Assembly: GCA_046329125.1 (NCBI GenBank)
Contig: JAXLVD010000017.1
Coordinates: 16,048-80,047, forward strand
DNA length: 64,000 nucleotides
Direction of reading: 5' to 3'
DNA from: Spirosomataceae bacterium
GTDB taxonomy: Bacteria > Bacteroidota > Bacteroidia > Cytophagales > Spirosomataceae
In this document: positions 15,777 through 62,810 of the stretch, piece by piece
How positions within the stretch are numbered: position 1 is the first letter of the stretch
Layout: every line of letters begins with the position of its first letter
The notes under the pieces: model-generated
Told to the model about the DNA's origin: nothing
The model's database searches: none
The model's input: only the letters and a program-made list of their open reading frames with translations
Position numbers and translations under genes: made by a program

Positions 15777-18387
15777 TTATTCCGTTTTCAAACTCTTTAC
15801 CGGATTCATTAAGGCCGCTTTAATGGCCTGAAAACTCACTGTCAGTAAGGTAATAAACAATGCCCCAACGGCGGCGACCGCAAAAATCCACCAAGAGATC
15901 CGGGTGTGATATTCATATTTTTCAAGCCAATGGCTGAGAAAATAATAAGCAATCGGGCCGGCAATGAGAAAGGAAATAATAACTAATCCGACAAAATCTT
16001 TTGAGAGCAGTCCCCAAAGATTAAGTACTGTAGCTCCCAGCACTTTTCGAACGCCAATCTCTTTGGTGCGTTGTTCGGCGATAAAAGAGGCCAAACCAAA
16101 TAAACCCAGACAGGAAACAAGAATAGCCAAGGTGGCAAAGAAAGTAGCCAATTTGCCGATCCGTTCCTCATTACTGAATTTACGGTCATATTCCTGATCG
16201 GCAAAACGGTATTCAAAAGGATTTTCGGGGTCGTATTTTTTGAATACCGATTCAATTTTTGCCACTGCGTCGCTTGCACTTACCTGCGGTTTTATTTTGA
16301 TTGTCAGCTGATTGATACGGTGATAATTGAGGAAGAAAATGGTTTGTTTGGCAGGGTCATAGGGCGATTGGGTAACCAGATCTTTGACCACTCCGATTAC
16401 TTTGAATTTCTCCGAGTCCCCCCATTGAATTATCTCGTTGATCGGATTTTTTAAACCCATGTATTTTACGGCGGCTTCGTTCAGGATGAAGCCGGCGGTA
16501 TCGGTGGAGAACTGTTTCGAAAAGTCACGACCCTCTTTTAACTGCCAGTTGATGGTTTTTCCAAATTCGTGCGTAATACGTAGGGTAACAAACTCTTCCG
16601 ACATATTAGGGTCTTTGCCTTTCCAGGTAAAACCACCGTTGGTAACATACGTATCAGTAATCGGGCTATCTATCGGTAGCCGCCAGTTCTTCCAGGGCCC
16701 CGGTATTCAGTAAATCGTCGCGAAAGGTAGAATAATGCTTAATGATTTCCTCCGTTTTGATGGAAGAGGTGAGAAGCCGGTTGCGATTGTAGCCGATGGG
16801 ACGATCTTTGGCAAATTGGATTTGGCGGAAAACAACCACTGTTCCTATAATCAAAGTTACCGAAACCGTAAACTGTACCACCACCAATACTTTGCGCGGT
16901 GCAGAAGCAAAACGCCCCAATTTGAATGTCCCTTTCAGTACTTTGATGGGTTTGAAAGATGACAGATAAAGCGCAGGGTAACTTCCGGCAATCAAACCCG
17001 TAATGAAAATAAAACCAAGACATACAAGCCAGAAGAAAGGATTGGTCCACAGAACCGTTATTTTTTTGTCTACAACCTCATTGAAAAACGGAAGGCTGAG
17101 AAGAACCAAAAGCAGAGACAGGGTAAAAGCAAAAATCACTACTAACAGCGATTCGCCAAAAAACTGCATAATCAATTGTCCTTTGACGGAGCCTACTGCC
17201 TTGCGAATACCTACTTCTTTGGCGCGTTTCTCACTTCGGGCTGTACTTAAATTCATGAAATTGATACAAGCCAACAGCAACACAAAGACACCGATAATAC
17301 CGAAAAGCCACACAAACTCAATGCGCCCGCCCGTATTTATACCATTTTTAAATTCGGAGTACAAATGCCATTGAGACATCGGCAGCAGGAATATTTCAGG
17401 TTTGTATTTATCCTGGTCCTGACTGATATTGTTTTGTTTAGCTTTTTTTATTTTTAAAGAAACCTTCTCAGGAGTGGTATTATCAGCTATTTGTGCATAC
17501 GTTTGAAACCAATTGTTGCCCCAACCAAGCCATTTGGGCAAATCTTTGGCCATCAACTCCCACGGAGCAATGAACGATAGATCATGGAAGGAAGAATTAT
17601 GAGGCAAGTCTTTGTACACTCCCGTTACCTTCACAATCTGCTTATTGTCAATTTTTATAATCTTATCCATCGGGTCAGCATCGCCAAAAATGACCTTGCT
17701 GACGGATTCGGAAAGTAAAACAGAATTGGGTTCCTGCAAGCCGGCCCGTGTTCCTTTTACCATTTTCAACGAAAGCATTTCTGTAACTTCCGAATCCATA
17801 TAATTACCGCTTTGTTTTATTTTCTTCTCGCCAAATGAAAGTAAGTGTTGTCCCGGAAAGCCGGAAATCACTACGTATTTGAAGTTGTTGCCATAAGCGG
17901 TACGCAGCTCAGGTGCTAATTGCATAGGCACGCCTGACCAAGTCTGAACTTCACCGTTGAAGTTCTGATTTTGCATCACTTTTGTAATACGATCATAATT
18001 TTGATACGCTTTATTTACCGATAATTCATCCCAAACCCACAAGCCAATGAGCATCGCCACGGCCATACCGGTAGCCAAGCCGAAAATATTAATAAACGAG
18101 TAACCTTTGTGTTTCAACAGGTTACGAAAGGCGATTTTGAAGTAGTTGCGTATCATAGTCGGGCTGTAGGTATAAGTTGACGGATAATTGTTTTTTCGTT
18201 TTGCCAAAGGCCGTAAGAGTTTGATGACGTTGAAAATGTATTTCCAATCCGCCTTTCGTCGGCCGACGGTTTGCGACCAATGATTGTATAATTCCAATAA
18301 ATCACCTTCGACTTCTTCCGAAGTGTTGGGGTTGGACCACCACCTCAACAGAAGTGAAGCCCAGCGCGGCGGGTGGTTTCGATTCAT
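15777..18387 (-). pseudogene. P1: frameshifted double-FtsX (MacB-like) orphan permease, class-A prefix
   Basis: ORFs 16666-18387 (N-terminal 573 aa) and 15777-16604 (C-terminal part; that frame stays open upstream to at least ~16700) together align end to end with intact paralog P2. The frames break at a GATA-GATA tandem duplication (16667-16674). FtsX loops RSEKRAKEVGIRK and EQRTKEIGVRK are present. Confidence 0.8.
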
Positions 18388-18414
18388 GTTTTTTTTTATT
18401 TATGTAGGATGCCA

Positions 18415-18479
18415 CGTAGAGACGCCGTATCGGCCCGTGCCGTCCGCCGTTGCAGGATCGAAAATTTTGCGTCTCTACG
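18415..18479 (-). repeat. Intercistronic inverted repeat (P2/P1 junction)
   Basis: 11-bp arms CGTAGAGACGC (18415-18425) / GCGTCTCTACG (18469-18479). The right arm plus AAAATTTTG is homologous to the hairpin at 29761-29790. Confidence 0.5.
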
Positions 18480-18490
18480 CGGCGGCGGCT

Positions 18491-21121
18491 TTATTCAGAT
18501 CGTAAACTTTTGACCGGATTCATCAAAGCCGCTTTGATGGATTGAAAACTGACCGTCAATAAAGTAATGAGTAACGCTCCCGCCCCGGCCGCGGCAAAAA
18601 TCCACCACGAGATCCCCGTCCGATAGGTATATTTCTCCAACCATTCGTCCATGAAATAATAAGCGACAGGGGCGGCAATCAAATAGGCGATCAGGACCAA
18701 TACCACAAAATCTTTGGAGAGCATTTGCCAAAGATTGGTGACGGAAGCGCCCAATATTTTACGAATCCCGATTTCTTTCGTGCGCTGTTCGGCAACAAAA
18801 GACGCCAGACCGAATAAACCCAGACAGGAAATGAAAATGGCAAAAATGGCAAAAAAGGTAGCCAATATGCTGATACGTTCCTCGGTGGCAAATTTTCGGG
18901 CATATTCTTCATCTACAAATCTGTAATCGAACGGAGCGGAAGGGACCAATTTTTTGAAGACGGTCTCCATCTTTGTTAAAGCGGTATGTGCATTGATCCT
19001 TGGGTTTATTTTTAAAAAAATATATCCTTTATACCCTTGCAGAAAGAAAATGGTTGGCTTTATAGGCTCAAAGGGCGATTTCATTACCATGTCTTTGACA
19101 ACCCCAATCACTTTAAAGGTGTTTCCGTCGTAAAATTCGGTATCCCAATGAATGGTTTCGCCAATGGGATTTTGTAAACCCATCTCTTTTACCGCGGCTT
19201 CATTAAGAACAAATCCGGCAGAATCACTTGCCAACTCTTTTGAAAAATCTCTTCCGGCCACAAATTGCCAACCGATGGTTTTGCCATAATCATGACTTAC
19301 GCCCAATGTTCCGAAGTTTGTTTGAAAATTAGGGTCTTTTCCTTTCCAGTCAAATCCGCCATTCATGGCAGCAATGTCTGTCAGGCGGCTGGAAGATTCG
19401 GCCATTTCTGTTACGACACCCGTTTTGAGTAATTCTGTTTTCAGAATGTCTGATTTTCCTTTAAACTCCGGAGAGCTTTTTCGGAAGACCAGCAAATTTT
19501 CACGCGAATAGCCAATCGGACGGTTTTTTGCATATTGAATTTGACGGTGAACGACAATGGTACCGATAATGAGAATGATTGAGACGGAGAATTGAACAAT
19601 AACTAAAGTTTTTCGTGGTAAAGATGCCAAACGACCGATGAAGATGGTTCCTTTTAAGACGCTTATGGGTCTGAAAGAAGACAAATAAAATGCCGGATAA
19701 CTGCCTGAAATAAGCCCGGTTACGGTGATAAATGCCAGTGAAAAAATCCAGAAAAGCGGATTGTTCCATAAAATCTCCGTTTTTTTATCCGTAATCGAAT
19801 TAAACCAAGGCAATAATAGTAGAACAAGCAGCAAGGAAATGAGAAAAGCCAAAATAACTGTGAGCAGAGATTCGCTGAAAAATTGGTTGATTAACTGACT
19901 GCGCATTGATCCGACCGACTTTCGAATCCCTACTTCTTTGGCGCGTTTTTCACTGCGGGCAGTATTTAAGTTTATAAAGTTGATGCAAGCCAGCAACAGC
20001 ACAAAAACACCGATAATGCCATAAATCCAAACATATTTCAATTCTTCACCGGTTGCAATTACGCCATTTTCGTATGTTGAGTACAAATGCCAATTACGCA
20101 TGGGTTGGAGAAAGAGCGTAGGTTTACGTTCGGCATATTCTTTGTCAACGTGAGCTAATTTTAGGTCTTTTATCTTGGCAGAAACAGTTTCAAAGTTTGT
20201 ATTGGGGTTGATTTGAGCATAAATGTGAAGAAAATTATTATTCCAATCATCTTTATGATCTCTGATATAATCATAGGAAGACAGCATTAAATCCCAAGGC
20301 GCAATGAAAGCAAGTTCTTTAAATTCAGAGTTGTTGGGCAAATCCTCATATACACCCGTTACCTTCACATTTAGCTCATTATCTATTTTAAGTAATTGAT
20401 TGGTCGGATCATTATTATCAAACAACATCTTTGCCAAGGACGCTGAAAGCAGGATAGAATTTAATTCTCTGAGTCCATTTTTACTTCCATATTTCATCTT
20501 CAGTGACAGCAATTCGGGCGCTTCCGGCTGCATATAATTCCCTTTTTGAGTGAAATTTTGGTTGCCGGAAGTGATGATATAGTTTTGAGTCTGTGTGGAC
20601 ATGACCACATACTTAAAATCTTCCTTGAAATGACTGCGAAGTTCTTGTCCCAACGGAATAGGGTTATTTTCTCGCGTACTTATTTCTCCATGAATGGTTT
20701 GGTGTTGCATTACCCGCCCTATTTGCTCATAATTTTTGTGGTATTTATTGAAACTCAATTCATCGTACATCCACAAACCAATCAACATTGTCACGGCCAT
20801 TCCCGTAGCCAAGCCGAAAATATTAATAAAGGAGTAACCTTTGTCTTTCAACAGATTACGAAAGGCGATTTTGAAATAGTTGCGTATCATGGTTGGGCTG
20901 TATAGATAAGTTTTAGGATAAATGACTCGTTTGTCTTTGGCAAAAGGCCGTAATAATTTAATGACATTGAAAATGTATCTCCAATCCGCCTTTCGTTGAC
21001 CGACAGTTTGCTGCCAATGATTGTATAATTCCAATAAATCACCTTCCACCTCTTCCGAAGTGCTGGGATTGGACCACCACCTCAACAGAAGTGAAGCCCA
21101 GCGGGGCGGTTTTTGGTTCAT
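18491..21121 (-). CDS. P2: orphan double-FtsX (MacB-like) ABC-type permease, class-A prefix domain
   Basis: I trimmed the start to the ATG at 21121 (MNQKPPRWASLLLRWW...), matching the paralog N-termini. Prefix ...EEVEGDLLELYNHW. FtsX loops RSEKRAKEVGIRK and EQRTKEIGIRK each follow a large extracytoplasmic-type segment. C-terminus is NPVKSLRSE. Confidence 0.9.
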   Translation of the reverse strand: MNQKPPRWASLLLRWWSNPSTSEEVEGDLLELYNHWQQTVGQRKADWRYIFNVIKLLRPFAKDKRVIYPKTYLYSPTMIRNYFKIAFRNLLKDKGYSFINIFGLATGMAVTMLIGLWMYDELSFNKYHKNYEQIGRVMQHQTIHGEISTRENNPIPLGQELRSHFKEDFKYVVMSTQTQNYIITSGNQNFTQKGNYMQPEAPELLSLKMKYGSKNGLRELNSILLSASLAKMLFDNNDPTNQLLKIDNELNVKVTGVYEDLPNNSEFKELAFIAPWDLMLSSYDYIRDHKDDWNNNFLHIYAQINPNTNFETVSAKIKDLKLAHVDKEYAERKPTLFLQPMRNWHLYSTYENGVIATGEELKYVWIYGIIGVFVLLLACINFINLNTARSEKRAKEVGIRKSVGSMRSQLINQFFSESLLTVILAFLISLLLVLLLLPWFNSITDKKTEILWNNPLFWIFSLAFITVTGLISGSYPAFYLSSFRPISVLKGTIFIGRLASLPRKTLVIVQFSVSIILIIGTIVVHRQIQYAKNRPIGYSRENLLVFRKSSPEFKGKSDILKTELLKTGVVTEMAESSSRLTDIAAMNGGFDWKGKDPNFQTNFGTLGVSHDYGKTIGWQFVAGRDFSKELASDSAGFVLNEAAVKEMGLQNPIGETIHWDTEFYDGNTFKVIGVVKDMVMKSPFEPIKPTIFFLQGYKGYIFLKINPRINAHTALTKMETVFKKLVPSAPFDYRFVDEEYARKFATEERISILATFFAIFAIFISCLGLFGLASFVAEQRTKEIGIRKILGASVTNLWQMLSKDFVVLVLIAYLIAAPVAYYFMDEWLEKYTYRTGISWWIFAAAGAGALLITLLTVSFQSIKAALMNPVKSLRSE

Positions 21122-21225
21122 AATCAATTTTTTAAAAGGCAAATTTGCAAGTAAGCAAATGGGTAATTTTTTCAATATGCCCGTTGCTGATTTGCTCCGC
21201 GGCGGACGGCTTTTCAACTTTGTTT

Positions 21226-23856
21226 TTACTCATTTCGTAAACTCTTCACCGGGTTAGAAATGGCTGTTTTGATAGAGTGAAAGCTGATAGTAAACAATGC
21301 AATTATTATTACTAAGAATTCTGCCGATGCAAAAAGCCACCAACTTATTTCAATACGATAAGGATAATTTTGTAACCATTTGTTTGCAGCCATGTATGCA
21401 AGCGGCGATGCAATGATTAAAGCAAATACAACAAGCTTTATAAAATCGCCTGAAAGTGTTGTAATAATTTGTTGCACCGATGCGCCAAGCACTTTGCGTA
21501 TGCCAATTTCTTTCGTTCGTTTTTCGACAGATAAAACCGATAATCCAAACAAACCGATGCATGAAATAAATATGGTAAGTATTGAACTGAATAAAATAAT
21601 CTCTTTCCATTTTTTAACAGCAGAATATTGTCTCCTGTTTTCATCGTTCTTGAACATATAAGAATAAGGGTTCATCGGGTAAAGCTGTTGATATGTTTTT
21701 TGTATCCATTTTAAACTTTCAGCAGCCGTGTTGGGCTTTATTTTGATATAGTAGGCTCCATAATTACCTCTTAATGAGAATGCTTGCGGTGTTATTTTTT
21801 GAGTCAATGGTGCAAAGTGATAATCCTTTACCACACCAATTACACTATAGGTTTCATTACTGTTTCCTAACATTTGTACAGTTTTGCCGATAGGGTTTTT
21901 CCATTTTGCCGCTTTTACAAAACTTTCGTTCACAATAATTGATTGTGCAGAATCGGCAGGAAATGCTTTTGAAAAATTCCTTCCCGCTACCAATGGTATT
22001 TTTAGTAACGGCAAATAATTTTCATCAATCGTTTCATCAGCAAAGAATACGGTACCGTCGGTGAAATTTTTTGTACCGGTGCCCCGGTTGCCGGCATTCT
22101 TTATACTTACGCCAACAATGTTTGGGTTTTTGAGCAATTCATTTTTAAAAGCAGCAGCATCGGTATTTTTCAGCCCGTTTGTATTTACAATGACAAGATT
22201 ATTGTCATCATATCCCAAATCTGTTTTAGTTAATAAATTAAACTGTGCATAAATTATTCCGGTGGCTATGATTAAGAATGAGGCAAGCGTAAACTGCAAT
22301 ACCACCAACGATTTTTGCAGATAATTTTTGCCTGCAATCTGAAAACGGCTATACAAAGTTTGTACAGGATTATAACCCGATAAAACCAATGCAGGATAAA
22401 AGCCGGCCAGCAAGCCTGTGATAAAATACAAAGTGATGTATCCTGTAATTAATTTAATATCGAACAGGTAAGAAATGGCCAATGCTTTATTGGAAAACTC
22501 ATTAAACAACGGCAATAACAATAGGACCAACCCAATGGCTAATAAGAAAGCAGCAGTGCAAAGAAAAAACGATTCTCCAAGAAATTGGACTATCAATTGC
22601 TTTCTGTCACTGCCTGCCACTTTGCGAATGCCGATTTCTTTTGCACGCTTAACAGACCTGGCAATAGTGAGGTTTACAAAATTGATGCAGGCAATCAGTA
22701 ACACAAACAATGCAATACCCGAAAGCAAATACGAGTACATCGGATTGCTTGCATTGGTGAGACCATTGCCTGCCGGTAGTTGTGTGCTCAGATGTATGTC
22801 AAGATACGGTTGCAAAAGATAGGTGCCCATGGGAATTTGATCCGGATCGCCGCCATCATTTTTCAGCATTTCATAGAAAGTAGCTTTCGCATCTGCCACA
22901 TAAAAACGCTGCATTTGATTTTCCACTGTTTGGATGTTGGCTTTTTCATCCAACACTACAAATGTGTTCAGGAAAAGGCTAAACCAATTATGGGTATCCT
23001 TTACGTCAGCATCGGATACTATTAAAGGCATCAGGGCCGTAAATTGTATAGAAGAATTTTGCGGGCAACGTTTTGCAACAGCTGTTACTTTGTAAGGAAC
23101 AAAGGCTGTATCTTCTTTTATCATCATTACCCTGCCGACAACATCAGTGGTAGCAAAATATTTCTTTGCAGCATCTTCGCTTAATACAAGTGAATGCGGT
23201 TCTGTTAAACAGGTTTTAGGGTCTCCGGCTAATAAGGGAAATGTCAATACCGAAAAGAAATTGGAGTCAACATGTAAGACACCACCCTGTTGCTGTACTT
23301 CGGTTCCTTTTTTTATGTCTTTAACACCGCCCTGCACACGAACAAAAGACTTTATTCCGGGGACATTTTGCATAAACCTCGGCCCTTGTAAAAAACCTGT
23401 GCTGCCAATTTCAAAGTAGCCTTTTAATCCTTTTTGCCCTCTTGCTATGCGGTAAATATTGGTTGCATTTTTATGAAATCTGTCGAAGCTTACCTCATCT
23501 TTTACATACAGCATAATCAGCATGGCGCAGGCCAAGCCAATACATAAGCCTGCAATATTGATGAAAGAATAAACTTTGTTTCGAGCAAAATTTCGGAAAG
23601 CGATTTTGAAATAATTAAGTATCATGGTTGGGCTGTATATGTAGGTTGTTGGATAATTATTTTTTCGTTTTGCAAATGGTCGCAAGAGTTTCAGGGCATT
23701 GAGCGCATAGTACCAATTGGCTTTTCTGATACCTGCGGTTTGTACCCAATAGGCGTATAATTCCAGTAAATCACCTTCTACTTCTTCCAAAGTATTCGGG
23801 TCGGCCCACCAACTGAGTAAGGTGGAGACCCAGCGCGGTGGTTGATTCTGATTCAT
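21226..23856 (-). CDS. P3: orphan double-FtsX permease, class-A prefix, body subfamily II
   Basis: 876 aa. Prefix PPRWVSTLLSWWADPNTLEEVEGDLLELY. Loops RSVKRAKEIGIRK and EKRTKEIGIRK. The body is closest to P16 (CPQNSSIQF / CPQNSSIKF). Confidence 0.9.
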   Translation of the reverse strand: MNQNQPPRWVSTLLSWWADPNTLEEVEGDLLELYAYWVQTAGIRKANWYYALNALKLLRPFAKRKNNYPTTYIYSPTMILNYFKIAFRNFARNKVYSFINIAGLCIGLACAMLIMLYVKDEVSFDRFHKNATNIYRIARGQKGLKGYFEIGSTGFLQGPRFMQNVPGIKSFVRVQGGVKDIKKGTEVQQQGGVLHVDSNFFSVLTFPLLAGDPKTCLTEPHSLVLSEDAAKKYFATTDVVGRVMMIKEDTAFVPYKVTAVAKRCPQNSSIQFTALMPLIVSDADVKDTHNWFSLFLNTFVVLDEKANIQTVENQMQRFYVADAKATFYEMLKNDGGDPDQIPMGTYLLQPYLDIHLSTQLPAGNGLTNASNPMYSYLLSGIALFVLLIACINFVNLTIARSVKRAKEIGIRKVAGSDRKQLIVQFLGESFFLCTAAFLLAIGLVLLLLPLFNEFSNKALAISYLFDIKLITGYITLYFITGLLAGFYPALVLSGYNPVQTLYSRFQIAGKNYLQKSLVVLQFTLASFLIIATGIIYAQFNLLTKTDLGYDDNNLVIVNTNGLKNTDAAAFKNELLKNPNIVGVSIKNAGNRGTGTKNFTDGTVFFADETIDENYLPLLKIPLVAGRNFSKAFPADSAQSIIVNESFVKAAKWKNPIGKTVQMLGNSNETYSVIGVVKDYHFAPLTQKITPQAFSLRGNYGAYYIKIKPNTAAESLKWIQKTYQQLYPMNPYSYMFKNDENRRQYSAVKKWKEIILFSSILTIFISCIGLFGLSVLSVEKRTKEIGIRKVLGASVQQIITTLSGDFIKLVVFALIIASPLAYMAANKWLQNYPYRIEISWWLFASAEFLVIIIALFTISFHSIKTAISNPVKSLRNE

Positions 23857-23870
23857 AGCTTCTTAAGTTC

Positions 23871-23923: not shown

Positions 23924-23926
23924 TAC

Positions 23927-26542: not shown

Positions 26543-26543
26543 G

Positions 26544-26882: not shown

Positions 26883-26991
26883 GTCTTGTTTTTATTTGAT
26901 ACGATAATGTCGATAAAATGCCGTGCCACCAAAAAAGACCCTTCTGAAATGCCTGCAATGGCCTTTTTTCAAAAAGCACAGAAAAAAACAC

Positions 26992-27029
26992 TGTCCGCTT
27001 TTGGACAATTGCTCGTACCGAAGCGGACA
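26992..27029. promoter_or_regulatory. O1: bipartite palindromic site upstream of R1 (candidate PadR operator)
   Basis: TGTCC-GCTTTT-GGACA (26992-27007) plus a degenerate CGTAC-CGAAGC-GGACA (27014-27029). The first site is 110 nt upstream of the R1 ATG. Confidence 0.6.
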
Positions 27030-27076
27030 GATGTGGTACGGGCAACCTGCCCGTTTTTATAGTATTTGATACTTAA

Positions 27077-29746: not shown

Positions 29747-29760
29747 GATTTCTGTAATCA

Positions 29761-29790: not shown

Positions 29791-29798
29791 AAGGGGGA

Positions 29799-38197: not shown

Positions 38198-38306
38198 TGG
38201 ATTCTATTATTTCTATTTTTGCTGAGCAAATAGTTTGCCATTGAAAAGTTGTATTGATAAATAGTTGATTGACAGTGGTTTAGTCGAGTGAGCGGTTTTT
38301 GTTGAT

Positions 38307-38342
38307 TGTCCATAATCGGACAACTTTGTACGCTTTAGGACA
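38307..38342. promoter_or_regulatory. O2: bipartite palindromic site in the R2 / TIM-barrel divergent region
   Basis: TGTCC-ATAATC-GGACA (38307-38322) plus TGTAC-GCTTTA-GGACA (38327-38342). It lies 110 nt from the R2 ATG and ~125-145 nt from the ATG at 38466. Confidence 0.6.
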
Positions 38343-47563: not shown

Positions 47564-47661
47564 GTTCAGATGCTGTGATTTTCTATTTAATTATTATTTG
47601 CTAAACAAATAGTATGCCATCGCTAAAATGGGCTGCAAATAAGGGAAGAAGACACTTCAGA

Positions 47662-47698
47662 TGTCCGAAATCGTACAACTGCCGTCCGTTGACGAACA
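47662..47698. promoter_or_regulatory. O3: bipartite palindromic site upstream of R3
   Basis: TGTCC-GAAATC-GTACA (47662-47677, one mismatch) plus CGTCC-GTTGAC-GAACA (47683-47698). It is 99 nt upstream of the R3 ATG and downstream of the module-4 terminator. Confidence 0.5.
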
Positions 47699-50402: not shown

Positions 50403-50411
50403 GGCTTTGGG

Positions 50412-50473
50412 AGGTGAAAGTGCAAAGTGTAGAGGTGAAATTGGAAAGATTACAATACTTTACACTTTCACCT
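50412..50473 (-). repeat. Intercistronic hairpin (P13/P12 junction), GTGAAAGTGTAAAG family
   Basis: 17-nt arms AGGTGAAAGTGCAAAGT (50412-50428) / ACTTTACACTTTCACCT (50457-50473). The single mismatch is a G.U pair only in the minus-strand (sense) RNA. Confidence 0.6.
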
Positions 50474-50485
50474 TTACACGCTTTC

Positions 50486-53146: not shown

Positions 53147-53155
53147 GGCTTTGGG

Positions 53156-53196
53156 AGGTGAAAGTGCAAAGATTATAATACTTTACACTTTCACCT
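53156..53196 (-). repeat. Intercistronic hairpin (P14/P13 junction), same family
   Basis: AGGTGAAAGTGCAAAG (53156-53171) - ATTATAATA - CTTTACACTTTCACCT (53181-53196). All 16 positions pair in the sense RNA, including one G.U. The hairpin ends 9 nt before the P13 ATG. Confidence 0.6.
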
Positions 53197-53208
53197 TTAC
53201 ACGCTTTC

Positions 53209-55911: not shown

Positions 55912-55922
55912 AGAAAAATAGT

Positions 55923-56258
55923 TTAGCTCCATTTTAAAGTCACTTGCGGTACAATACGGTCCCAGAGATTATTCCGTACCTGTCGTACTTCATTCAATAC
56001 CCGACCGCCTAAGGCCGTCACCGTAAACATCCGTTTGCGGCGACCGCCCCGTTCGGCCGTAGCTTCACCTAAAAGAGAGGTGACGTAGCCTTTTTGTTCG
56101 AGCCGTTGCAAAGCGGCATGAACAGCACCGGTACTGACGGTCTGTTTGGTTTCCTGTTCCAGTTCTTCGGCTATGGATACGGAATATGCCTTGGGAGCAA
56201 GTACTGCTACCGTTAAAAGGACTACTTCTTCAAATTCACCTAAATCACTCCGTCGCAT
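55923..56258 (-). CDS. R4: PadR-family winged-HTH transcriptional regulator
   Basis: 111 aa. EFEEVVLLTVAVL..KAYS ... VHAALQRLEQKG ... ERGGRRKRMFTVTALG. Confidence 0.9.
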   Translation of the reverse strand: MRRSDLGEFEEVVLLTVAVLAPKAYSVSIAEELEQETKQTVSTGAVHAALQRLEQKGYVTSLLGEATAERGGRRKRMFTVTALGGRVLNEVRQVRNNLWDRIVPQVTLKWS

Positions 56259-56330
56259 GGATAAAGGGTTGGTTAAGCGCTGATTTTATTATATCTATTT
56301 CTGTATATAAAATACTTTGCCGGAAAATTG

Positions 56331-56361
56331 AATCGGCGATTTGAAGTAGAAATCGCCGATT
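56331..56361 (-). terminator. Terminator-like hairpin between O4 and the R4 start
   Basis: Perfect 12-bp stem AATCGGCGATTT - GAAGTAG - AAATCGCCGATT. On the minus strand it is followed by CAATTTTCC. Confidence 0.5.
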
Positions 56362-56385
56362 TTGGGAAAATCTGAAAAATAGAAT

Positions 56386-56422
56386 TGTCCAAAAACGGAC
56401 AGGTTTCGTACGATGGTGGACG
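56386..56422. promoter_or_regulatory. O4: bipartite palindromic site upstream of R4
   Basis: TGTCC-AAAAAC-GGACA (56386-56401) plus CGTAC-GATGGT-GGACG (56407-56422). It is 128 nt upstream of the R4 ATG. Confidence 0.6.
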
Positions 56423-56441
56423 AAGGCGAAAAAAGGTTGAA

Positions 56442-56714
56442 GGGTAGAGTGTAAATGAATTGGTTTACAAAGTTGTACCTATCGTTTTAACCCCTATCTC
56501 CGTCCCTTGCGGTCCGCCGCCGCGGCCCCTTTCAGGAGAAAGGGAGCTGCAAGAAGTCCCTCCACTGAAAGGGGAGGGATTTAGGGTGGGGTTGTGTATA
56601 ACCTAACAAACCAATTCATGTAAAGGTTAAGGGGAGATTGTAAAGACAGTGGAACGAATATCGGTTAATCTTTTTTACACTCTCATTACAACCTTGCCTC
56701 TTTTCACTCTACCC
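56442..56714. repeat. 273-bp nested-palindrome element (MITE-like or structured RNA)
   Basis: Four concentric inverted repeats: GGGTAGAGTG (56442-56451) / CACTCTACCC (56705-56714); ATGAATTGGTTT (56455-56466) / AAACCAATTCAT (56608-56619); AACCCC (56489-56494) / GGGGTT (56588-56593); CCCCTTTCAG (56526-56535) / CTGAAAGGGG (56565-56574). Confidence 0.55.
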
Positions 56715-59092
56715 TACTCCGTTTTCAGGGACTCTACCGGATTGCTTAAGGCGGCTTTGATGGCTTGAAAACTGACCGAAAACAACGCAATACCTAAAGC
56801 AAAGGCAGACGCCAAGCCCAAATACCACCATTTGACCTCGACACGGTACGCAAATGTTTGCAGGAGCTTTTGGCCCAGCCAATAAGAGATGGGGAGACCA
56901 ATGAGCAGGGCAATTCCGACCAGCTTTAAAAAATCTCCCGAAAGCATGGCCGCAATGCTGCTGACGCTCGCGCCCAATACTTTACGAATGCCGATCTCTT
57001 TGGTGCGTTGTTTGGCGACGAGCGAGATCAGCCCAAAAATACCCGCACACGCGATCAAAATAGCAAGGATGGTCACAAAGCCGGTCATGCGCCAGATGTT
57101 GTCAATGGCTTGATACGACTTGGCCACTTCGTCGCTGAGATAAAAATGTCCCAAGGCTCTGCGTGACGGGATTTTTTTAAAACGTTTTTCCATGCTGCTT
57201 ATCAGCGCTTTCCCTTTTGATTCATCCGTCAAACGAACGGTTAAAAAGTTGCTGAGTTGTTGTTTGCCGGCGTACCAGTGTAAAAGCGGTTCCACTTCGT
57301 CTTTAAGGCTTTGATAATGGAAGTTTTTGGTCACACCGATGACCGTATAAATTGTGTTGTCGTTGTTTTGGCGTAAGCGTTTGCCCACACCGGCAGTCCA
57401 GCCGAAGGACTTCATGGCGGCTTCATTGATGATCACGGAATGATTGACCGAATCGGGGGAGTTGTCGGAGAAGCCTCGGCCTTCAAGAAAGGGGATTTTG
57501 TACGTTTCAAAATAATTTTCAGTGGCACTTACGTGGCGCAGAATTATCTTTTTTGCTTCGTTGCCTTCCGGAAAATAGTTATTAAAGTTTTGCCAATACC
57601 GTATGGGTGTAATTTCAGAAACGGCAAAAGATACCACATTCGGATTTTGTCGAAGTTCGTTCAGAATGACTTGGCCTTCCGAAACCGCCGCATTTTCGTT
57701 ACGGTAAGCTAAGTCGGTATTGAAAATCAGCACATTGTTTTTATCATACCCAACATCGGCAGTTTTCATAAAATGGATCTGCTGCCGTAAGCCGATTGTG
57801 CCGACAATTAAAATAACTGCCAACGCAAATTGTAACACGATCAGGCTGTTTTGGCGCATACGTCCCCGGCGCGGATCGGTTGAAATTTTCCCTTTTACGG
57901 CATCAGTAGTTTTCAGTCGCATCAGATAATATGCAGGGTAGGTGCCGGCTATCAGTGCAACGAACAATGAAATACCGAACACGATGAGTATAGTGGGGTA
58001 ATCGTTGGCAAATGAAATATCCAACTGCATGTGCCCGTCGCGCAGTTGATTAAACGAAGGAATCAGATAATAGACTGCAAAAAATACCGACAGCAACGAT
58101 GAAACCGCCATAACAATGCCTGACTCTGTCCAAAATTGATTCAAAATGATGCGTTTTGTGGCCCCAACTACCTGTTTTACGGCTACTTCCCTGATACGCG
58201 GTAAGGCCGAAGCCATGTTGAGATTGACCAAATTGATACTGATGATCAGCAACAAAAAAACAGCAATGGCAATAGCCCCGTAAATAAGACCGATAAATGT
58301 CGGGTTTTGGTCGTGAATGAAGTTTTTAAACAAACTCAGGTGTATGACCTGCTTTTGGGATTCGGGTGAAAAATGGGTTTTGACCAATTGGGGCAGTTTT
58401 GCTTCCAGTGCCTCTTTGTTGGCACCCTTTTTCAGTAACACGAAAACCGACGCGAAAGTATTGTACCAGTCAGCCCCTTCCTGAAATTTGGGGTTAGCCG
58501 TAAGGAAGGCGGCAGGCATCAGTACCTCAAATTGTTGCGACGAATTGGCGGGAATTTTGGCTAATACTCCTGAGATTTTGAATGGGAGTGTGTCGTCTAA
58601 GGTGACTGTTTTGCCGACGGGATCCATATCGCCGAACAGATTATACGCTATTTTTTCGCTGATTACTAACGAATTGCGCCCTTTAAGAGCCGTGGCAGCA
58701 TTGCCGTATTTGAGCGGAAAACTAAACACCTCAAAAAAGGTGGAATCTGCAAAAACAGTGCTTTCCTGAACATCTTTTGTCCCATAATGAATCCAAGGCC
58801 AATACCATGTCTGAATATGCGTACCGGTTTCAATTTCAGGATAATCTTTCCGCAGTTGGTCTAAAATCGGATAAACCGTGTGGCTGTGTTTACGACCGTT
58901 GGATTCCGTCTGAACGTAGTAAAGTCGATCTCCGTTTTGATGAAATTCGTCAAAGGTGAGGCATTTTTGAGCAAAAAGCACTAAGACGACCACGCAGGCC
59001 ATCCCTACCGACATGCCCAACAGATTGATACCCGTAAAGAGGCGATTTTTCCAAAGATTTCGGAGTGCGATTTTGAAATAATTGACGAGCAT
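56714..59092 (-). CDS. P15: stand-alone orphan double-FtsX permease without prefix domain
   Basis: I chose the ATG at 59092 (MLVNYFKIALRNL...). The ORF-track start at 59128 is a GTG. Loops ALPRIREVAVKQ (divergent) and KQRTKEIGIRK. Confidence 0.85.
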   Translation of the reverse strand: MLVNYFKIALRNLWKNRLFTGINLLGMSVGMACVVVLVLFAQKCLTFDEFHQNGDRLYYVQTESNGRKHSHTVYPILDQLRKDYPEIETGTHIQTWYWPWIHYGTKDVQESTVFADSTFFEVFSFPLKYGNAATALKGRNSLVISEKIAYNLFGDMDPVGKTVTLDDTLPFKISGVLAKIPANSSQQFEVLMPAAFLTANPKFQEGADWYNTFASVFVLLKKGANKEALEAKLPQLVKTHFSPESQKQVIHLSLFKNFIHDQNPTFIGLIYGAIAIAVFLLLIISINLVNLNMASALPRIREVAVKQVVGATKRIILNQFWTESGIVMAVSSLLSVFFAVYYLIPSFNQLRDGHMQLDISFANDYPTILIVFGISLFVALIAGTYPAYYLMRLKTTDAVKGKISTDPRRGRMRQNSLIVLQFALAVILIVGTIGLRQQIHFMKTADVGYDKNNVLIFNTDLAYRNENAAVSEGQVILNELRQNPNVVSFAVSEITPIRYWQNFNNYFPEGNEAKKIILRHVSATENYFETYKIPFLEGRGFSDNSPDSVNHSVIINEAAMKSFGWTAGVGKRLRQNNDNTIYTVIGVTKNFHYQSLKDEVEPLLHWYAGKQQLSNFLTVRLTDESKGKALISSMEKRFKKIPSRRALGHFYLSDEVAKSYQAIDNIWRMTGFVTILAILIACAGIFGLISLVAKQRTKEIGIRKVLGASVSSIAAMLSGDFLKLVGIALLIGLPISYWLGQKLLQTFAYRVEVKWWYLGLASAFALGIALFSVSFQAIKAALSNPVESLKTE

Positions 59093-59191
59093 GAGAGTGA
59101 TTAGTAAGGTTTGGATTTTTAACCGCACACTTTATGCCACCCTACAACGGGTTTGATTTCTAAGAGGTTACGGATTGGTAGGCGGAGAGGG

Positions 59192-59229
59192 TGTCCATTT
59201 TCGGACAGTTACTGTTCGGAGGTGAACAC
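59192..59229. promoter_or_regulatory. O5: bipartite palindromic site upstream of P15 (no adjacent PadR)
   Basis: TGTCC-ATTTTC-GGACA (59192-59207) plus TGTTC-GGAGGT-GAACA (59214-59229). It is 100 nt upstream of the ATG at 59092. Confidence 0.6.
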
Positions 59230-59247
59230 GGCACAAAACTACGGTAC

Positions 59248-60024
59248 TCATGGCCGGTAACTGAATTCGGATTGGTTCATCAATTTTCCGTCAACGAATG
59301 TTTTTAGGGTCAGCGGAAAATCCCATTGGGCATCGTAGGTGTATTCATAACTCCAAACATTGACCTTGTTACCGGCTGCATCTTTACCAAAATTGGCAGT
59401 GGCGTTGTTAGGGCTTCCCCAACTTGGGTTCGTAAACGGAAGCGGTAATTGTTGAAACGGATTGTAATGCGTATCATATTCCCAATACGAAGTTGCCCAC
59501 TGTGTTACGTTTCCGCGAGTATCATAGTCGTAGGTATTGGCCAACACTTCGCGACGGTCAGGGGCAAACGTCTGACTTTTGGTTCTGTTGCCCGCTGTTG
59601 AATAAGTATGCAAGGTATAAGACAGGATTTGTTTGCCGTCGGCGGCATAATGTAATTCTTTTACGGGAAGGGAAGGTTGGGGGCCGTATTCATAACCGGT
59701 CAATGCCTGTAGGGTAAGCGGCTTACCGGGCACAGGCCATGAACTCAGATACAGCGGATGGGAAGACCAAAACTCTTCTCGTATCACTTGCGCTCCGACA
59801 TAAGTATAACGCCTTGATTCCCAAATGTTTTTGCCGTCGTCAAAGTATTTTCTGATTTCAATCGGCTTATTTTCAGCATTATAAATAAATTCTGTTTGCC
59901 GCTTGCCGTTTACCTTGATTTCACTGATCACAGGCGGTTTACCAAGCCTGTCTTGCAAAACAGACTTGTCTTTACATCCCACCAAACAAACACAAAGCGC
60001 CGGGAGGCTATAAATGATTTTCAT
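59248..60024 (-). CDS. Small lipoprotein with YD/Rhs-repeat-like motifs
   Basis: I trimmed the start to the ATG at 60024 (MKIIYSLPALCVCLVGCKD: signal peptide plus LVGC lipobox), because the longer ORF would overlap the 3' end of P16. Repeated motifs YxYD..GN (NTYDYDTRGNVTQW, YEYTYDAQWD, LHYAADGKQILSY). Confidence 0.7.
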   Translation of the reverse strand: MKIIYSLPALCVCLVGCKDKSVLQDRLGKPPVISEIKVNGKRQTEFIYNAENKPIEIRKYFDDGKNIWESRRYTYVGAQVIREEFWSSHPLYLSSWPVPGKPLTLQALTGYEYGPQPSLPVKELHYAADGKQILSYTLHTYSTAGNRTKSQTFAPDRREVLANTYDYDTRGNVTQWATSYWEYDTHYNPFQQLPLPFTNPSWGSPNNATANFGKDAAGNKVNVWSYEYTYDAQWDFPLTLKTFVDGKLMNQSEFSYRP

Positions 60025-60090
60025 AAGACCGTATCCTTTCTCAACAGACGCCTTAGAGCGGTAAAAAGTTGGAAAAGAAGATAAAGGAAA

Positions 60091-60138
60091 CCGGAAAAAC
60101 GGAACACAGAGAATGACCTCCGTGTTCCGTTTTTCCGG
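60091..60138 (-). terminator. Intrinsic terminator-like hairpin after P16
   Basis: Perfect 17-bp stem CCGGAAAAACGGAACAC (60091-60107) / GTGTTCCGTTTTTCCGG (60122-60138). On the minus strand it is followed by TTTCCTTTATCTTCTTTTCC. It is homologous to the terminator at 15711-15754. Confidence 0.65.
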
Positions 60139-60155
60139 TTTCCGCTCCTCCGATA

Positions 60156-62810
60156 TTACTCCGATTTCAACGACTTTACGGGATTGCCGAGCGCTGCTTT
60201 GACAGATTGAAAACTGACCGTTAAAAAGGCAATCAGGATGGACAAAACGGCTGCTATTACAAACGTCCACGCGCTGATGTCGATGCGGTAAGGGTAATTT
60301 TGCAACCATTCTTTGATGGCATAATAAGCGGCCGGAAAGGCAAAAATAAAGGAGAAACTGACCAATTTCAGAAAATCAGTTGAAAGCAGGGTGGTGATAC
60401 TCGCTACCGAAGCGCCCAGTACTTTGCGAATGCCGATCTCTTTCGTGCGTCGTTCGGCCGAAAGCGTAGCCAATCCAAACAGGCCGATGCAGGAGATAAA
60501 GATGGTCAAAATGGCACCAAACAGCATGATCTGCTTCCATTTAGCTTCCGACTCATACTGTTTCCGGTTTACTTCATCCATAAACTTGTATTCGTAAGGA
60601 GTGATCGGAAATAGTTTTTTATAGGTTTTTTCAATATGCCCTAAACTTGCCGTGGCGGTGCCGGGTTTGATTTTAATGAAAGCCCTACCGTAACCGTTAC
60701 CGGGTTTCATAGTAAACAATTGCGGATTGATCTCTAAGTTTAATGACTCAAAATGATAGTTTTTTACCACACCGATAACCGTGTATTTCTCGCCGTCGTT
60801 GTACCAGAAATCAACGACTTGCCCCAATGGATTTTTCCATCCCGCTTTTTTGACAAACGCTTCGTTGACCAGTACCGATTTGGTAGAATCCGTTGGAAAG
60901 TCAGCCGAAAAATTGCGCCCTTTAATGATAGGGATTTGTAACAGCGGGAAATAGGTCGCATCTACAGTTTCGTAGGCGAATGATTGTTGGGTATCACCGT
61001 TTACTTTGGCTACGGTGCCCCACATGCCGCCGTTTTTTGGGGCTACATCTACAATATGCGGGCTTTTCAATAATTCTTCTTTTAACAGCTTGGCCTCATT
61101 ACGACTCATCTGCGACTTATTGATGGTGATTACGTTTTTGTCACTGTACCCTAAGTCTTTATGAGTGAGATAATTGAACTGAGAATAGATGGTCAGCGTA
61201 GCAATGATCAAAAAAGAGGCCAACGAAAATTGGAGAACCACCAAACTTTTTTGGAGGTAGTTTTTACCCGAAAGATTAAAGCGACTGTACAGGGTCTGCA
61301 CCGGATTATAATTGGAGAGAACTAAAGCAGGATAAAAGCCTGCCAATAGACCGGTAATAAGGAATAAGCCGACGTAGCCAATCACCAACTTAACATCAAA
61401 CAGATAAGAGAAAGACAAGGCTTTGTTGGAAAGCTCATTGAAAGTAGGCAAAACCAATTGCAGCAAAGCCAGCGCAAAAGCGAATGCGGCAAAACACAAA
61501 ATAAAGGACTCTCCCAAAAATTGAAAGATCAATTGCCCTCGGCCGCCGCCGACCACTTTACGTACGCCGATTTCTTTGGCCCGTTTCAGCGAGCGCGCTA
61601 CGGTTAAGTTTACAAAATTGATGCAGGCAATCAGGAGGATAAATAGCGCGATACCCGATAAAATGTAAGAAAACATGGGATTACTGCCGTCTTGCAATCC
61701 GTTTTGAGCCGGATATTCTTTGCTTAGGTGCATCTCCGTAAAAGGCTGTAATGCATAGACGACTTTGTTTTTCTCTCCGTATTTTTCAGCTACCATCTTG
61801 ATGGTTTCCTTCGCATCTTTTTGGTAGATGCGGTTCATGGTCGCTTCTACTTTTTTCAGGTCGGCGTTGGGTTGCAGCACCACAAACGTATTCTGGAAGA
61901 TGTTGAACCAGTTTTCGTTACGCCCCATTTCCTGCGCGCTGACCACATTGGGAAAAAGCACCTCAAACTTAATGGATGAATTTTGAGGACATTTCTTGGC
62001 AATACCTGTTACTTTATAAGGTTCAAATTGCGTAGATTCTCCGTAGGAGTCTTTAAAATAGATCGTTTTGCCCAATGCATTGGCAGTACCGAATTGCTTT
62101 TCGGCCAGTTCTTCCGAAATCACCACCGATTTGGGCTCTTTCAGGGCTGTTTTCGGGTCGCCTTGGAGCAATGGAAAGGAGAATACGGAGAAGAAGCTGC
62201 TGTCGGCGACAAATGATTCTTGGCTGATGATCTCCGTTCCTCGTTTCATATCGTTGTGATGTCCTTTATAGCGAACAAAGGCCTGTATTTCAGGAACTCC
62301 TGCGCTGAACTTAGGTCCCTGAAAATGTCCTGTATTGCCTTGTTTCTGCTCAACAATGCCCGCAGGGGTAATGGAAGTGCTCGTTATCCGATAAATGTTG
62401 GGGTTATTGGCGTGAAATTGATCATAACTGACCTCATCTTTGGTATAAAGCATGATCAGCATGGCAGCGGCCAAGCCGATGCTCAGCCCAATGACATTGA
62501 TGGCTGAATACACCTTATTATGGGCTAAGGTGCGGAGGGTGATGGTTAGATAATTACGAAACATAACTGTAAATAGGATAGAAGTTTGATGATATTCCTG
62601 TTTTCGTTGACGACGTTTTACAAAAGGGGGTAATACCGATAGGACATTGAGCAGATAACGCCAAGTTGCCTGTCGTTTACCGGCTCGTTCATACCAATAA
62701 GTGTACAACTCCTCTAAGTCACCTTCTACTTCTTCGAGAGTTTCTTCAGGATGCAGCCAAACCAACAAGCGGCGGACCCAGCGAGGCGGAGGCAGATTCG
62801 GCAGGTTCAT
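60156..62810 (-). CDS. P16: orphan double-FtsX permease, class-A-like prefix, body subfamily II
   Basis: I chose the ATG at 62810 (MNLPNLPPPRWVRRLLVWLHPEETLEEVEGDLEELY), which overlaps the R5 stop as ATGA (62807-62810). Loops RSLKRAKEIGVRK and ERRTKEIGIRK. Confidence 0.88.
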   Translation of the reverse strand: MNLPNLPPPRWVRRLLVWLHPEETLEEVEGDLEELYTYWYERAGKRQATWRYLLNVLSVLPPFVKRRQRKQEYHQTSILFTVMFRNYLTITLRTLAHNKVYSAINVIGLSIGLAAAMLIMLYTKDEVSYDQFHANNPNIYRITSTSITPAGIVEQKQGNTGHFQGPKFSAGVPEIQAFVRYKGHHNDMKRGTEIISQESFVADSSFFSVFSFPLLQGDPKTALKEPKSVVISEELAEKQFGTANALGKTIYFKDSYGESTQFEPYKVTGIAKKCPQNSSIKFEVLFPNVVSAQEMGRNENWFNIFQNTFVVLQPNADLKKVEATMNRIYQKDAKETIKMVAEKYGEKNKVVYALQPFTEMHLSKEYPAQNGLQDGSNPMFSYILSGIALFILLIACINFVNLTVARSLKRAKEIGVRKVVGGGRGQLIFQFLGESFILCFAAFAFALALLQLVLPTFNELSNKALSFSYLFDVKLVIGYVGLFLITGLLAGFYPALVLSNYNPVQTLYSRFNLSGKNYLQKSLVVLQFSLASFLIIATLTIYSQFNYLTHKDLGYSDKNVITINKSQMSRNEAKLLKEELLKSPHIVDVAPKNGGMWGTVAKVNGDTQQSFAYETVDATYFPLLQIPIIKGRNFSADFPTDSTKSVLVNEAFVKKAGWKNPLGQVVDFWYNDGEKYTVIGVVKNYHFESLNLEINPQLFTMKPGNGYGRAFIKIKPGTATASLGHIEKTYKKLFPITPYEYKFMDEVNRKQYESEAKWKQIMLFGAILTIFISCIGLFGLATLSAERRTKEIGIRKVLGASVASITTLLSTDFLKLVSFSFIFAFPAAYYAIKEWLQNYPYRIDISAWTFVIAAVLSILIAFLTVSFQSVKAALGNPVKSLKSE

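Follow-up and report, generated by a model that had tools for sequence, protein, structure and literature searches.

The window analyzed here is a 64,000-nucleotide (nt) stretch of contig JAXLVD010000017.1 from a Spirosomataceae bacterium. It carries a 47-kb minus-strand array (15.8 to 63.1 kb) of 16 duplicated FtsX/MacB-PCD permeases, P1 to P16, and is composed of five operons, each led by a PadR-family regulator gene (R1 to R5), and the stand-alone permease P15. Fourteen of the 16 permeases begin with an N-terminal domain of ~65 amino acids (aa), the prefix, and a linker that leads into the first transmembrane segment (TM1); P9 and P15 have no prefix. The prefix co-varies with the PadR of its own operon, and the permease body does not. 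This evolutionary pattern is near certain. An earlier note on this DNA had claimed that the prefix tracks the adjacent PadR and not the body, and the claim holds both in the window and in 84 operons elsewhere, where the Spearman correlation with PadR identity is 0.61 for the prefix and 0.06 for the body.

Each short PadR gene is followed by one to four permeases of ~870 aa, at a junction of -10 to +4 nt; the stop codon of R5 overlaps the start codon of P16 (ATGA). The operon orders are R1 > P4, P3, P2, P1; R2 > P8, P7, P6, P5; R3 > P11, P10, P9; R4 > P14, P13, P12; and R5 > P16. R1 and R5 are placed in the PadR family by Pfam PF03551, where their scores (Table 1) exceed the gathering score of 27 bits, and R2-R4 align with R1/R5 at 52-69% identity. 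Pfam recognizes two MacB_PCD and two FtsX domains in each of the large proteins. All of the genes that had been listed earlier were found in place on the minus strand.

The prefixes fall into four classes, A to D. This grouping was proposed in the earlier note, together with the two permeases that have none, and was reproduced by MAFFT alignment and identity matrices. Prefix identity is 60-88% within class A (P1-P4), 69-86% within class B (P5-P8), 61% between the two members of class C (P10, P11), and 86-93% within class D (P12-P14), compared with 27-53% between classes. The prefix of P16 is 44-57% identical to those of class A; R1 and R5 are the closest PadR pair in the window (69% identical), and both of their modules carry this class. 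The grouping stands, but the classes are not separate in nature, as all are sub-types of one known family, NCBIfam NF038404 ("permease prefix domain 2"). All 14 prefixes match this 62-position model with 64-104 bits as full-length proteins and 79-111 bits as isolated domains, where the curated cutoff is 35 bits, and neither P9 nor P15 gives a match. Relatives in the databases are named "permease prefix domain 2-containing transporter" and come from Spirosomataceae and other Bacteroidota.

The bodies sort in a different way. Subfamily I (P1, P2, P5, P6, P10, P11, and P12) has body identities of 50-67%, subfamily II (P3, P16) 59%, and subfamily III (P13, P14) 60%, while the remaining pairs share 23-46%. 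Within the class B operon (P5-P8), the bodies are 36-57% identical. P12 and P13 share 93% of the prefix and 34% of the body, whereas P1 and P6 share 39% of the prefix and 67% of the body. P7, once listed as a singleton, is a distant member of subfamily I, with 43-46% identity and a clade of I+P7 that has 100% support.

Neighbor-joining bootstraps place these two patterns in direct conflict. The prefix tree supports A+P16 at 98%, B at 85-94%, C at 99-100%, and D at 100%, and gives body subfamilies I and II 0% and 5-13%; subfamily III (P13, P14) is compatible with class D. The body tree supports subfamilies I, II, and III at 100% each and every operon class at 0%. The identity matrices and bootstraps thus confirm that body types cut across prefix classes, and the congruence of trees that had been named as evidence to the contrary was not found. 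Simple duplication of whole genes or whole operons is ruled out by the incongruent trees. Rate heterogeneity alone is also ruled out; the ranking of pairs reverses between prefix and body, and differences in rate are therefore insufficient.

The same pattern is observed in related genomes. A genome scan with a PadR alignment identified 78 loci in Runella, Spirosoma, Dyadobacter, Larkinella, Fibrella, Chitinophaga, and Haliscomenobacter, and the best PadR match, 90% identical, is from Runella limosa, which marks the window as Runella-like. Gene calling based on hidden Markov models (HMMs) found 105 PadR-led operons and 180 prefix-bearing permeases in these loci, and the comparisons of identity and correlation drew on 78 loci, 84 operons, and 139 genes. 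Mean identity within operons is 75% for the prefix and 39% for the body; between operons, it is 44% and 38%. The prefix is more alike than the body in 74 of the 75 operon-mate pairs. The closest relative of a gene is its operon mate for 53 of 92 genes when judged by prefix and for one of 92 when judged by body. Clusters of prefixes agree with clusters of PadRs at an adjusted Rand index of 0.76-0.81, compared with 0.00-0.03 for bodies. None of 500 permutations at the operon level attained the observed prefix-PadR correlation. Co-variation in other genomes had been suggested as a check in the earlier note, and its absence as grounds for doubt; it is present.

Position on the chromosome was controlled for in two ways. 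When only non-first genes are considered, the correlation with PadR identity is 0.63 for the prefix and 0.08 for the body. The prefix of gene 2 is separated from the PadR gene by the body of gene 1, and of these two only the prefix correlates with PadR. At distances of 0-3.5 kb, prefix identity is 0.76 for pairs in the same operon (n=55) and 0.38 for pairs in different operons (n=8, maximum 0.45), and at 3.5-6.5 kb the values are 0.76 (n=18) and 0.38 (n=14). The prefix class switches abruptly at each PadR gene, despite conserved flanks on both sides that are competent for conversion. The presence of the prefix also follows PadR: 171 of 190 permeases in PadR-led chains have one, compared with 2 of 31 in PadR-less chains (Fisher p=3e-21).

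One chain clearly departs from the rule. In operon o3 of locus L021, gene 4 (+, 13494-16236), the fourth in the chain, has a prefix of another class. The prefixes it resembles at 71-74% identity belong to PadRs that share only 60-63% with the PadR of the chain. The mismatch could be due to the loss of a PadR gene or to a recent insertion.

The prefix is always N-terminal to TM1 in the alignment. In MacB, the segment before TM1 is cytoplasmic, and by this analogy the prefix should lie on the cytoplasmic side of TM1. AlphaFold2, run on an alignment of 118 sequences, predicts three helices (residues 5-14, 17-37, and 40-53) with a core pLDDT of ~90, and the third helix ends in a conserved (L/Q)(R/x)P. 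The basic linker of ~20 aa that follows is of low confidence and flexible in the model, and leads into TM1. Many short proteins of 45-170 aa that consist of the prefix only are annotated on long Spirosomataceae contigs (e.g., P0010, P0022, P0049, and P0068). These may be debris of permease genes left by recombination or frameshift, or may be free-standing prefix proteins.

Mosaic genes are seen when the window is compared with its closest relatives. In other Runella species, where orthologous PadRs are 90-95% identical, the prefix class is kept, and the bodies and their order differ. In the R1-orthologous operon of Runella sp. MFBS21, gene L003_o8_g3 has a class A prefix that is 70-88% nt identical to P3/P2 and a body that matches P7, from the R2 operon, at 63-85% nt identity; the switch occurs ~200 nt past the prefix start. 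The most conserved segments of all paralogs are two junctions, the C-terminal ...IKAALMNPVKSLK(T/S)E and the linker/TM1 start, and such segments can seed homologous exchange. As read from these alignments, bodies are shown to have moved from operon to operon through recombination at two places, namely the 3' end of the upstream permease gene and the linker/TM1 start.

The class D operon holds the clearest traces of gene conversion. P12 and P13 are 92% nt identical in the prefix and 47% in the body, and their identity collapses to ~45% at the NYFKI/TM1 boundary, so that the tract ends exactly at TM1. The prefixes of P13 and P14 are 98-100% nt identical across ~150 nt. Each of the two tract copies (Table 1) includes an intergenic hairpin, at 50403-50485 between P13 and P12 and at 53147-53208 between P14 and P13 (both on the minus strand). 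The two hairpins are nearly identical, with stems of 16-17 base pairs (bp), a folding free energy of -25 kcal/mol, and z-scores of -5.6 (P13/P12) and -7.2 (P14/P13). Sequences rich in GTGTAAAG/GGTGAAAG, like these hairpins, also occur after the stop codons of other permeases (upstream of R3, R4, and R5).

Synonymous divergence separates recent conversion from older constraint. The synonymous substitution rate (dS) of the prefix is low in five window pairs (P12-P13, 0.27; P13-P14, 0.24; P12-P14, 0.46; P1-P2, 0.32; and P6-P8, 0.54), and the bodies of the same five pairs are saturated. In P5-P6, P1-P3, P3-P4, and P10-P11, prefix dS is saturated and the nonsynonymous rate (dN) is low (0.09-0.30; P5/P6 0.09). 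In the related loci, the proportion of synonymous differences (pS) of the prefix is below 0.6 in 50 of 75 operon-mate pairs, where the body median is 0.73. The 25 pairs with saturated pS have a proportion of nonsynonymous differences (pN) of 0.21 in the prefix, compared with 0.41 for random between-operon pairs. These comparisons show that prefix uniformity is maintained by recurrent short gene-conversion tracts and by purifying selection at the protein level. A constraint that acts only on the RNA of the 5' coding region is rejected as a full explanation, as protein identity persists at saturated synonymous sites.

HAAS-PadR dyads pair a HAAS domain (Pfam PF22564; DUF1700/DUF1129/DUF1048) with a PadR-like winged helix-turn-helix (wHTH) regulator, and a 2024 paper suggests that they are used in place of two-component systems (Ravi et al., mSystems, PMC11237479). 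The proposed role of HAAS is to pass a membrane signal to PadR. That paper lists HAAS fusions to FtsX/MacB-PCD proteins, including an Acidobacterium example, and treats perm_prefix_1 as HAAS. The array resembles these dyads in having a short three-helix cytoplasmic N-terminal domain (here with predicted helices) on multi-TM proteins, beside a stand-alone PadR gene. The HAAS neighborhood, a stand-alone PadR-like wHTH gene and a domain N-terminal to a multi-TM region, is thus present here at the frequencies given above for PadR-led and PadR-less chains. The paper differs in that no class-specific pairing, multi-permease operons, or body shuffling are described.

The prefix may be a cognate docking module for the PadR of its own operon, HAAS-like in its working, and the evidence leans modestly toward this reading. 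It is plausible because of the co-variation with PadR, the near-exclusive presence in PadR-led operons, the tight junctions, and the HAAS-PadR proposal (PMC11237479). The prefix would be an address tag that belongs to the PadR repressor of the operon and not to the permease body. The invariant acidic helix (EE..GDL.E) would form the common contact with PadR, and class-specific flanking residues would provide specificity. Permeases that differ in their periplasmic domains would all signal to a single repressor, in the manner of an OR gate; they would capture PadR at the membrane or let it go, and would in this way control the transcription of their own operon. The swapping of bodies would change what is sensed or handled and leave the match of regulator and sensor undisturbed, and parallel modules would stay mutually insulated.

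Several points weigh against the docking reading, and the first concerns HAAS. Genuine HAAS proteins score 37-66 bits on PF22564. A Pfam scan of isolated prefixes of five classes (E<=10) returned no family at all, HAAS PF22564 included. In an NCBIfam scan (E<=10), the prefixes matched perm_prefix_2 only and not perm_prefix_1, and a profile search of PDB sequences with the prefix alignment gave 0 matches at E<=10. Foldseek searches of the PDB with two AlphaFold2 models (pLDDT 69 and 77) gave none at E<1 (best ~3) and did not recover 2O3L/DUF1048. The GxP kink motif of HAAS is absent from the prefix sequences.

Profile-profile comparison with DUF1700/HAAS, a check suggested in the earlier note, did not detect HAAS homology. 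The deep hhalign profiles held 258 prefix, 151 HAAS, and 120 perm_prefix_1 sequences, collected with consensus-like probe queries and with a representative search. Prefix versus HAAS gave P values of 0.16, 0.028, and 0.018 with successive profiles, no better than the reversed-profile controls (0.007-0.054), and prefix versus perm_prefix_1 (P=0.0034) was also no better than reversed controls. The register was constant, with EEVqGDLhEEF placed on DILkDYEEHF. The comparison of perm_prefix_1 with HAAS reached only P=0.021, and hhalign may lack power on such short helical domains. HMM, profile-profile, and fold searches gave no support for HAAS homology, and a claim of HAAS membership is rejected on these grounds, a rejection that does not extend to functional analogy. 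As homology was undetected, the prefix is therefore described as HAAS-like in its working and is not filed as a member.

The remaining points concern the regulator and its DNA. The wing is conserved and the recognition helix largely conserved in all five PadRs, and all modules share an upstream TGTCC-N6-GGACA palindrome. With the DNA-reading parts of PadR and the palindrome common to all, the modules would be only partly insulated in their DNA recognition, unless a different, class-specific site is the operator. Physical linkage alone would lead one to expect first-gene prefixes to co-vary with PadR, and neutral gene conversion could account for the homogenization of the rest. In a mutual-information analysis of PadR and prefix columns (effective number of sequences, 38), noise was too high for contacts to be read from the top pairs.

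Neutral concerted evolution is the rival that best survives, though it is unlikely. Here, the 5' ends of tandem paralogs would be homogenized by homology-dependent gene conversion, with the conserved 3' end of the upstream gene and TM1 as anchors; the prefix would serve some generic purpose, e.g., stability, insertion into the membrane, or the docking of a factor common to all, and co-variation with PadR would be linkage. In favor of this explanation, the clear recent tracts take in non-coding intergenic DNA, prefix pS is low in two-thirds of operon-mate pairs (50/75), and the flanks able to seed conversion are conserved in all paralogs. The tracts, however, never cross from one operon into the next, even where the distance is no greater and the conserved flanks are present. 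P12 and P10, separated by 5.8 kb, are both non-first genes and both have subfamily I bodies, and they share only 33-36% of the prefix, whereas P12 and P14 are 5.5 kb apart, have bodies 34-36% identical, and have prefixes 85% nt identical. Linkage would also have to pass over the intervening gene 1 body, which is uncorrelated with PadR (rho 0.08), to reach the non-first prefixes, which are correlated (0.63). Class identity survives in the protein at saturated synonymous sites (P5/P6), and the presence of the prefix depends on the presence of PadR.

A second and more doubtful alternative is that the prefix is a tag for permease-permease assembly, with operon mates associating through their N-terminal helices and PadR merely traveling along. 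Uniform prefixes on operon mates with unrelated bodies would suit such a tag, as would the predicted helical, amphipathic three-helix module. Against it, many operons that show only one permease, such as R5-P16, carry the prefix all the same, although these counts partly reflect truncation at locus ends. The prefix is also nearly absent from PadR-less permease clusters, including runs of three or four, and prefix-less permeases such as P9 share operons with prefixed ones.

PadR-family regulators are classically ligand-released repressors of efflux genes, e.g., LmrR and PadR. A third alternative, which is improbable, is that the binding partner of the prefix is the product of a distant gene, for instance a protease or a MacB/LolD-type ATPase shared by the permeases, which would then be ATP-driven exporters under a PadR that responds to a small-molecule ligand. 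This would fit the classical role of PadR, the position of the prefix N-terminal to TM1, where MacB has its nucleotide-binding domain (NBD), and the lack of a local ATPase, which would have to act in trans if transport is ATP-driven. Against it, one partner common to all operons would exert no selection for classes that are operon-specific and co-vary with PadR, the 65-aa helical domain has no ATPase motifs, and no operon gene besides PadR could be the class-specific partner.

No ATP-binding cassette (ABC) ATPase gene was found within the window in a search for open reading frames (ORFs) with Walker A and LSGGQ motifs, and Pfam and NCBIfam scans found no NBD in any of the 16 permeases. Likewise, the 105 related operons examined contain no ABC ATPase gene; the 78 loci hold two ABC-ATPase-like ORFs, both outside the operons. 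An ATPase encoded elsewhere in the genome could possibly partner the permeases. The proposal that the permeases are sensors with reversed mechanotransmission, and not exporters, is speculative, and the sole fact in its favor is the lack of an ATPase gene in the window and in the 105 operons.

A wider reading of the docking module is tentative. PadR and prefix would form insulated, co-evolving regulator-receiver pairs, the ATPase-less permeases would be interchangeable sensor cartridges, and conversion would stamp the tag of the operon on newcomers. The orphan duplicated permeases of Bacteroidota, which number in the hundreds, and, by extension, those of Acidobacteria would then be sensors and not transporters. 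As part of this reading, PadR-prefix pairs might, by analogy with the specificity of histidine kinases and response regulators, constitute a one-step membrane signaling code; this too is held only as a possibility on the unlikely side of even.

Parts of this system were already known: the prefix domain as a curated model, orphan duplicated permeases in the company of PadR, and the concept of HAAS-PadR dyads. The curated NCBIfam prefix models name the domain only and give no function or pairing rule. The systems described by NF038404 and by its acidobacterial counterparts NF038403 (prefix domain 1), TIGR03434 (ADOP), and TIGR03433 share the duplicated FtsX + MacB_PCD body, a PadR neighbor, and no ATPase gene nearby. 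The array permeases have the ADOP architecture of two FtsX domains, each with a preceding MacB-like periplasmic core, and no adjacent ATPase. Their scores on TIGR03434 are 234-337 bits over model positions 5-803, below the cutoff of 622.3, and the window PadRs score 31.7-40.4 bits on TIGR03433 (padR_acidobact), below the cutoff of 101.8. By these scores, the window proteins are relatives, and not members, of the acidobacterial families ADOP and padR_acidobact. The literature search found no paper on operon-specific prefix classes, PadR co-variation, body exchange, or conversion tracts with defined junctions.

The MacB/LolCDE type VII ABC transporters share the four-TM FtsX fold, which is duplicated here, a periplasmic MacB_PCD between TM1 and TM2, and a cytoplasmic N-terminus of TM1. 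MacB differs in having an NBD where the array proteins have the 65-aa prefix, and no NBD gene occurs in the window or in the 105 related operons. In BceAB-BceRS of Firmicutes, an FtsX-domain permease with a large extracytoplasmic domain senses for the circuit that controls its own expression. Its paralogous modules are insulated by cognate permease-regulator specificity, as the array modules would be; BceAB-BceRS differs in having the ATPase BceA and a histidine kinase with a response regulator, where the array has no ATPase and no kinase and has PadR as the only regulator.

In Listeria, operons with genes for DUF1700 or multi-TM proteins are autoregulated through their PadR repressors (PMC6624303). 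In LltR-lmo0600 (DUF1700) and LstR with an FtsW/RodA homolog, PadR is co-transcribed with, and represses, a downstream HAAS-type membrane protein (PMC6624303). The LltR and LstR operons differ in having one membrane protein each, no paralog arrays, and another membrane domain.

The upstream regions have a common layout. Copies of TGTCC-N6-GGACA, 8 against 1.4 expected, are all in promoter-side intergenic regions, upstream of every PadR gene and of the PadR-less, prefix-less P15. In the related loci, 97 of 104 PadR genes have the palindrome upstream, between -160 and -100, and a pair of copies with a spacing of 21 bp is frequent. It could serve PadR as its operator, or some other factor as an enhancer. 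A second motif, TTGGCA-N4-ATTTG, has sigma-54-like -24/-12 spacing and is found upstream of 78 of 104 PadR genes in related loci, mostly at -50 to -60. Together, this motif and the upstream tandem palindromes resemble an enhancer-dependent promoter in sequence. AT-rich palindromes that vary with class follow TTGGCA-N4-ATTTG, e.g., CTATTT-N8-AAATAG at 63168-63187 (R5). CTATTT-N8-AAATAG was rejected as a general operator, as it is not above chance in the window and only the R5 copy is perfect.

Two upstream regions have additional features. A terminator-like hairpin upstream of R5 (63195-63250, minus strand; z -7.2) has a 15-bp GC-rich stem with flanking A/U runs. It sits between the palindromes and the promoter-like motif, and equivalents occur in the orthologous loci L001_o34, L046_o53, and L042_o1. 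The region upstream of R4 is unusually long (455 bp) and contains an inverted repeat at 56452-56622, with 27-nt arms that are 78% complementary and 117 nt apart, and a GC-rich core. This repeat may be a small insertion resembling a miniature inverted-repeat transposable element.

Table 1. Genes of the permease array, conversion tracts, and upstream motifs in the 64-kb window.
Feature	Description	Position	Prefix position	Strand	Score or comparison
P1	class A prefix, subfamily I body, frameshifted	15777-18387	18133-18387	-
P2	class A prefix, subfamily I body	18491-21121	20867-21121	-
P3	class A prefix, subfamily II body	21226-23856	23602-23856	-
P4	class A prefix, singleton body	23927-26542	26267-26542	-	NF038404 78-84 bits (P1-P4)
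R1	PadR-family regulator, 112 aa	26544-26882		-	Pfam PadR 41.1 bits
P5	class B prefix, subfamily I body	27077-29746	29483-29746	-
P6	class B prefix, subfamily I body	29799-32426	32175-32426	-
P7	class B prefix, body distantly related to subfamily I	32504-35119	34862-35119	-
P8	class B prefix, singleton body	35233-37860	37594-37860	-	NF038404 88-104 bits (P5-P8)
R2	PadR-family regulator, 110 aa	37865-38197		-
P9	no prefix, last gene of R3 operon, 31-nt gap after P10	39437-41890		-	no NF038404 match
P10	class C prefix, subfamily I body	41922-44582	44316-44582	-
P11	class C prefix, subfamily I body	44591-47230	46955-47230	-
R3	PadR-family regulator, 109 aa	47234-47563		-
P12	class D prefix on subfamily I body, clearest mosaic	47805-50402	50157-50402	-
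P13	class D prefix, subfamily III body	50486-53146	52901-53146	-
P14	class D prefix, subfamily III body	53209-55932	55639-55932	-
R4	PadR-family regulator, 111 aa	55923-56258		-	TIGR03433 31.7 bits (below cutoff); aligns with R1-R5
P15	stand-alone permease, no prefix, no PadR	56714-59128		-	no NF038404 match; Pfam MacB_PCD and FtsX, two stretches each
P16	diverged class A prefix, subfamily II body	60156-62810	62544-62810 (prefix + linker)	-	NF038404 73.6 bits
R5	PadR-family regulator, 112 aa	62807-63145		-	Pfam PadR 40.2 bits
Conversion tract, copy 1	last ~60 nt of P13, intergenic hairpin, P12 prefix + linker	50157-50545		-	88-97% nt identity to tract at P13
Conversion tract, copy 2	last ~60 nt of P14, intergenic hairpin, P13 prefix + linker	52901-53268		-
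TGTCC-N6-GGACA	palindromes	26992-27007, 38307-38322, 38327-38342, 47662-47677, 56386-56401, 59192-59207, 63259-63274, 63280-63295		.	8 vs 1.4 expected
TTGGCA-N4-ATTTG	sigma-54-like -24/-12 spacing	26916-26927, 38228-38239, 47607-47618, 56310-56321, 63182-63193		-	35-60 nt before padR start codons

P1 is split by a single frameshift near 16605-16665 into ORFs of 573 aa and 275 aa, and its homology resumes in the downstream frame (…LAAT / DSPITDTYVTNGGFTWKGKDP…). It is either a pseudogene or the product of a sequencing error. At 63379-63990 (minus strand), the window end cuts through a 17th permease and leaves its C-terminal 203 aa, in which the C-terminus is subfamily I-like; the array extends past this point. 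Between P16 and P15, an ORF at 59248-60309 (minus strand) has an internal lipoprotein-like signal (MKIIYSLPALCVCLVGC) and no Pfam match. Further upstream, this frame extends into the 3' end of P16, a stretch that is probably untranslated.

The rest of the window contains a type I restriction subunit, peptidases, a TonB-type receptor, DUF5916, and other genes. At the left end (198-4234, plus strand), the genes for a YgjP-like metallopeptidase and for the R subunit of a type I restriction enzyme (HSDR_N, SWI2/SNF2, and T1R domains) have no relation to the array.

Duplicated orphan FtsX/MacB permeases with PadR neighbors are among the largest unexplained paralog expansions of soil Bacteroidota and Acidobacteria, and the HAAS-PadR dyad has so far been proposed from gene neighborhoods only. 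The array provides natural domain-swap evidence, in which bodies are repeatedly exchanged and the N-terminal domain is kept matched to the repressor. Exchange of bodies with a repressor-matched prefix is the signature expected of a specific protein-protein interface. One locus supplies a small experiment matrix of five PadRs and four prefix classes. If the permeases are sensor cartridges, a circuit already in place would acquire new periplasmic sensor bodies through recombination at the two junctions. Large paralog arrays would be able to diversify their inputs without cross-wired regulation when conserved junctions allow cassette-like recombination and short-tract conversion follows.

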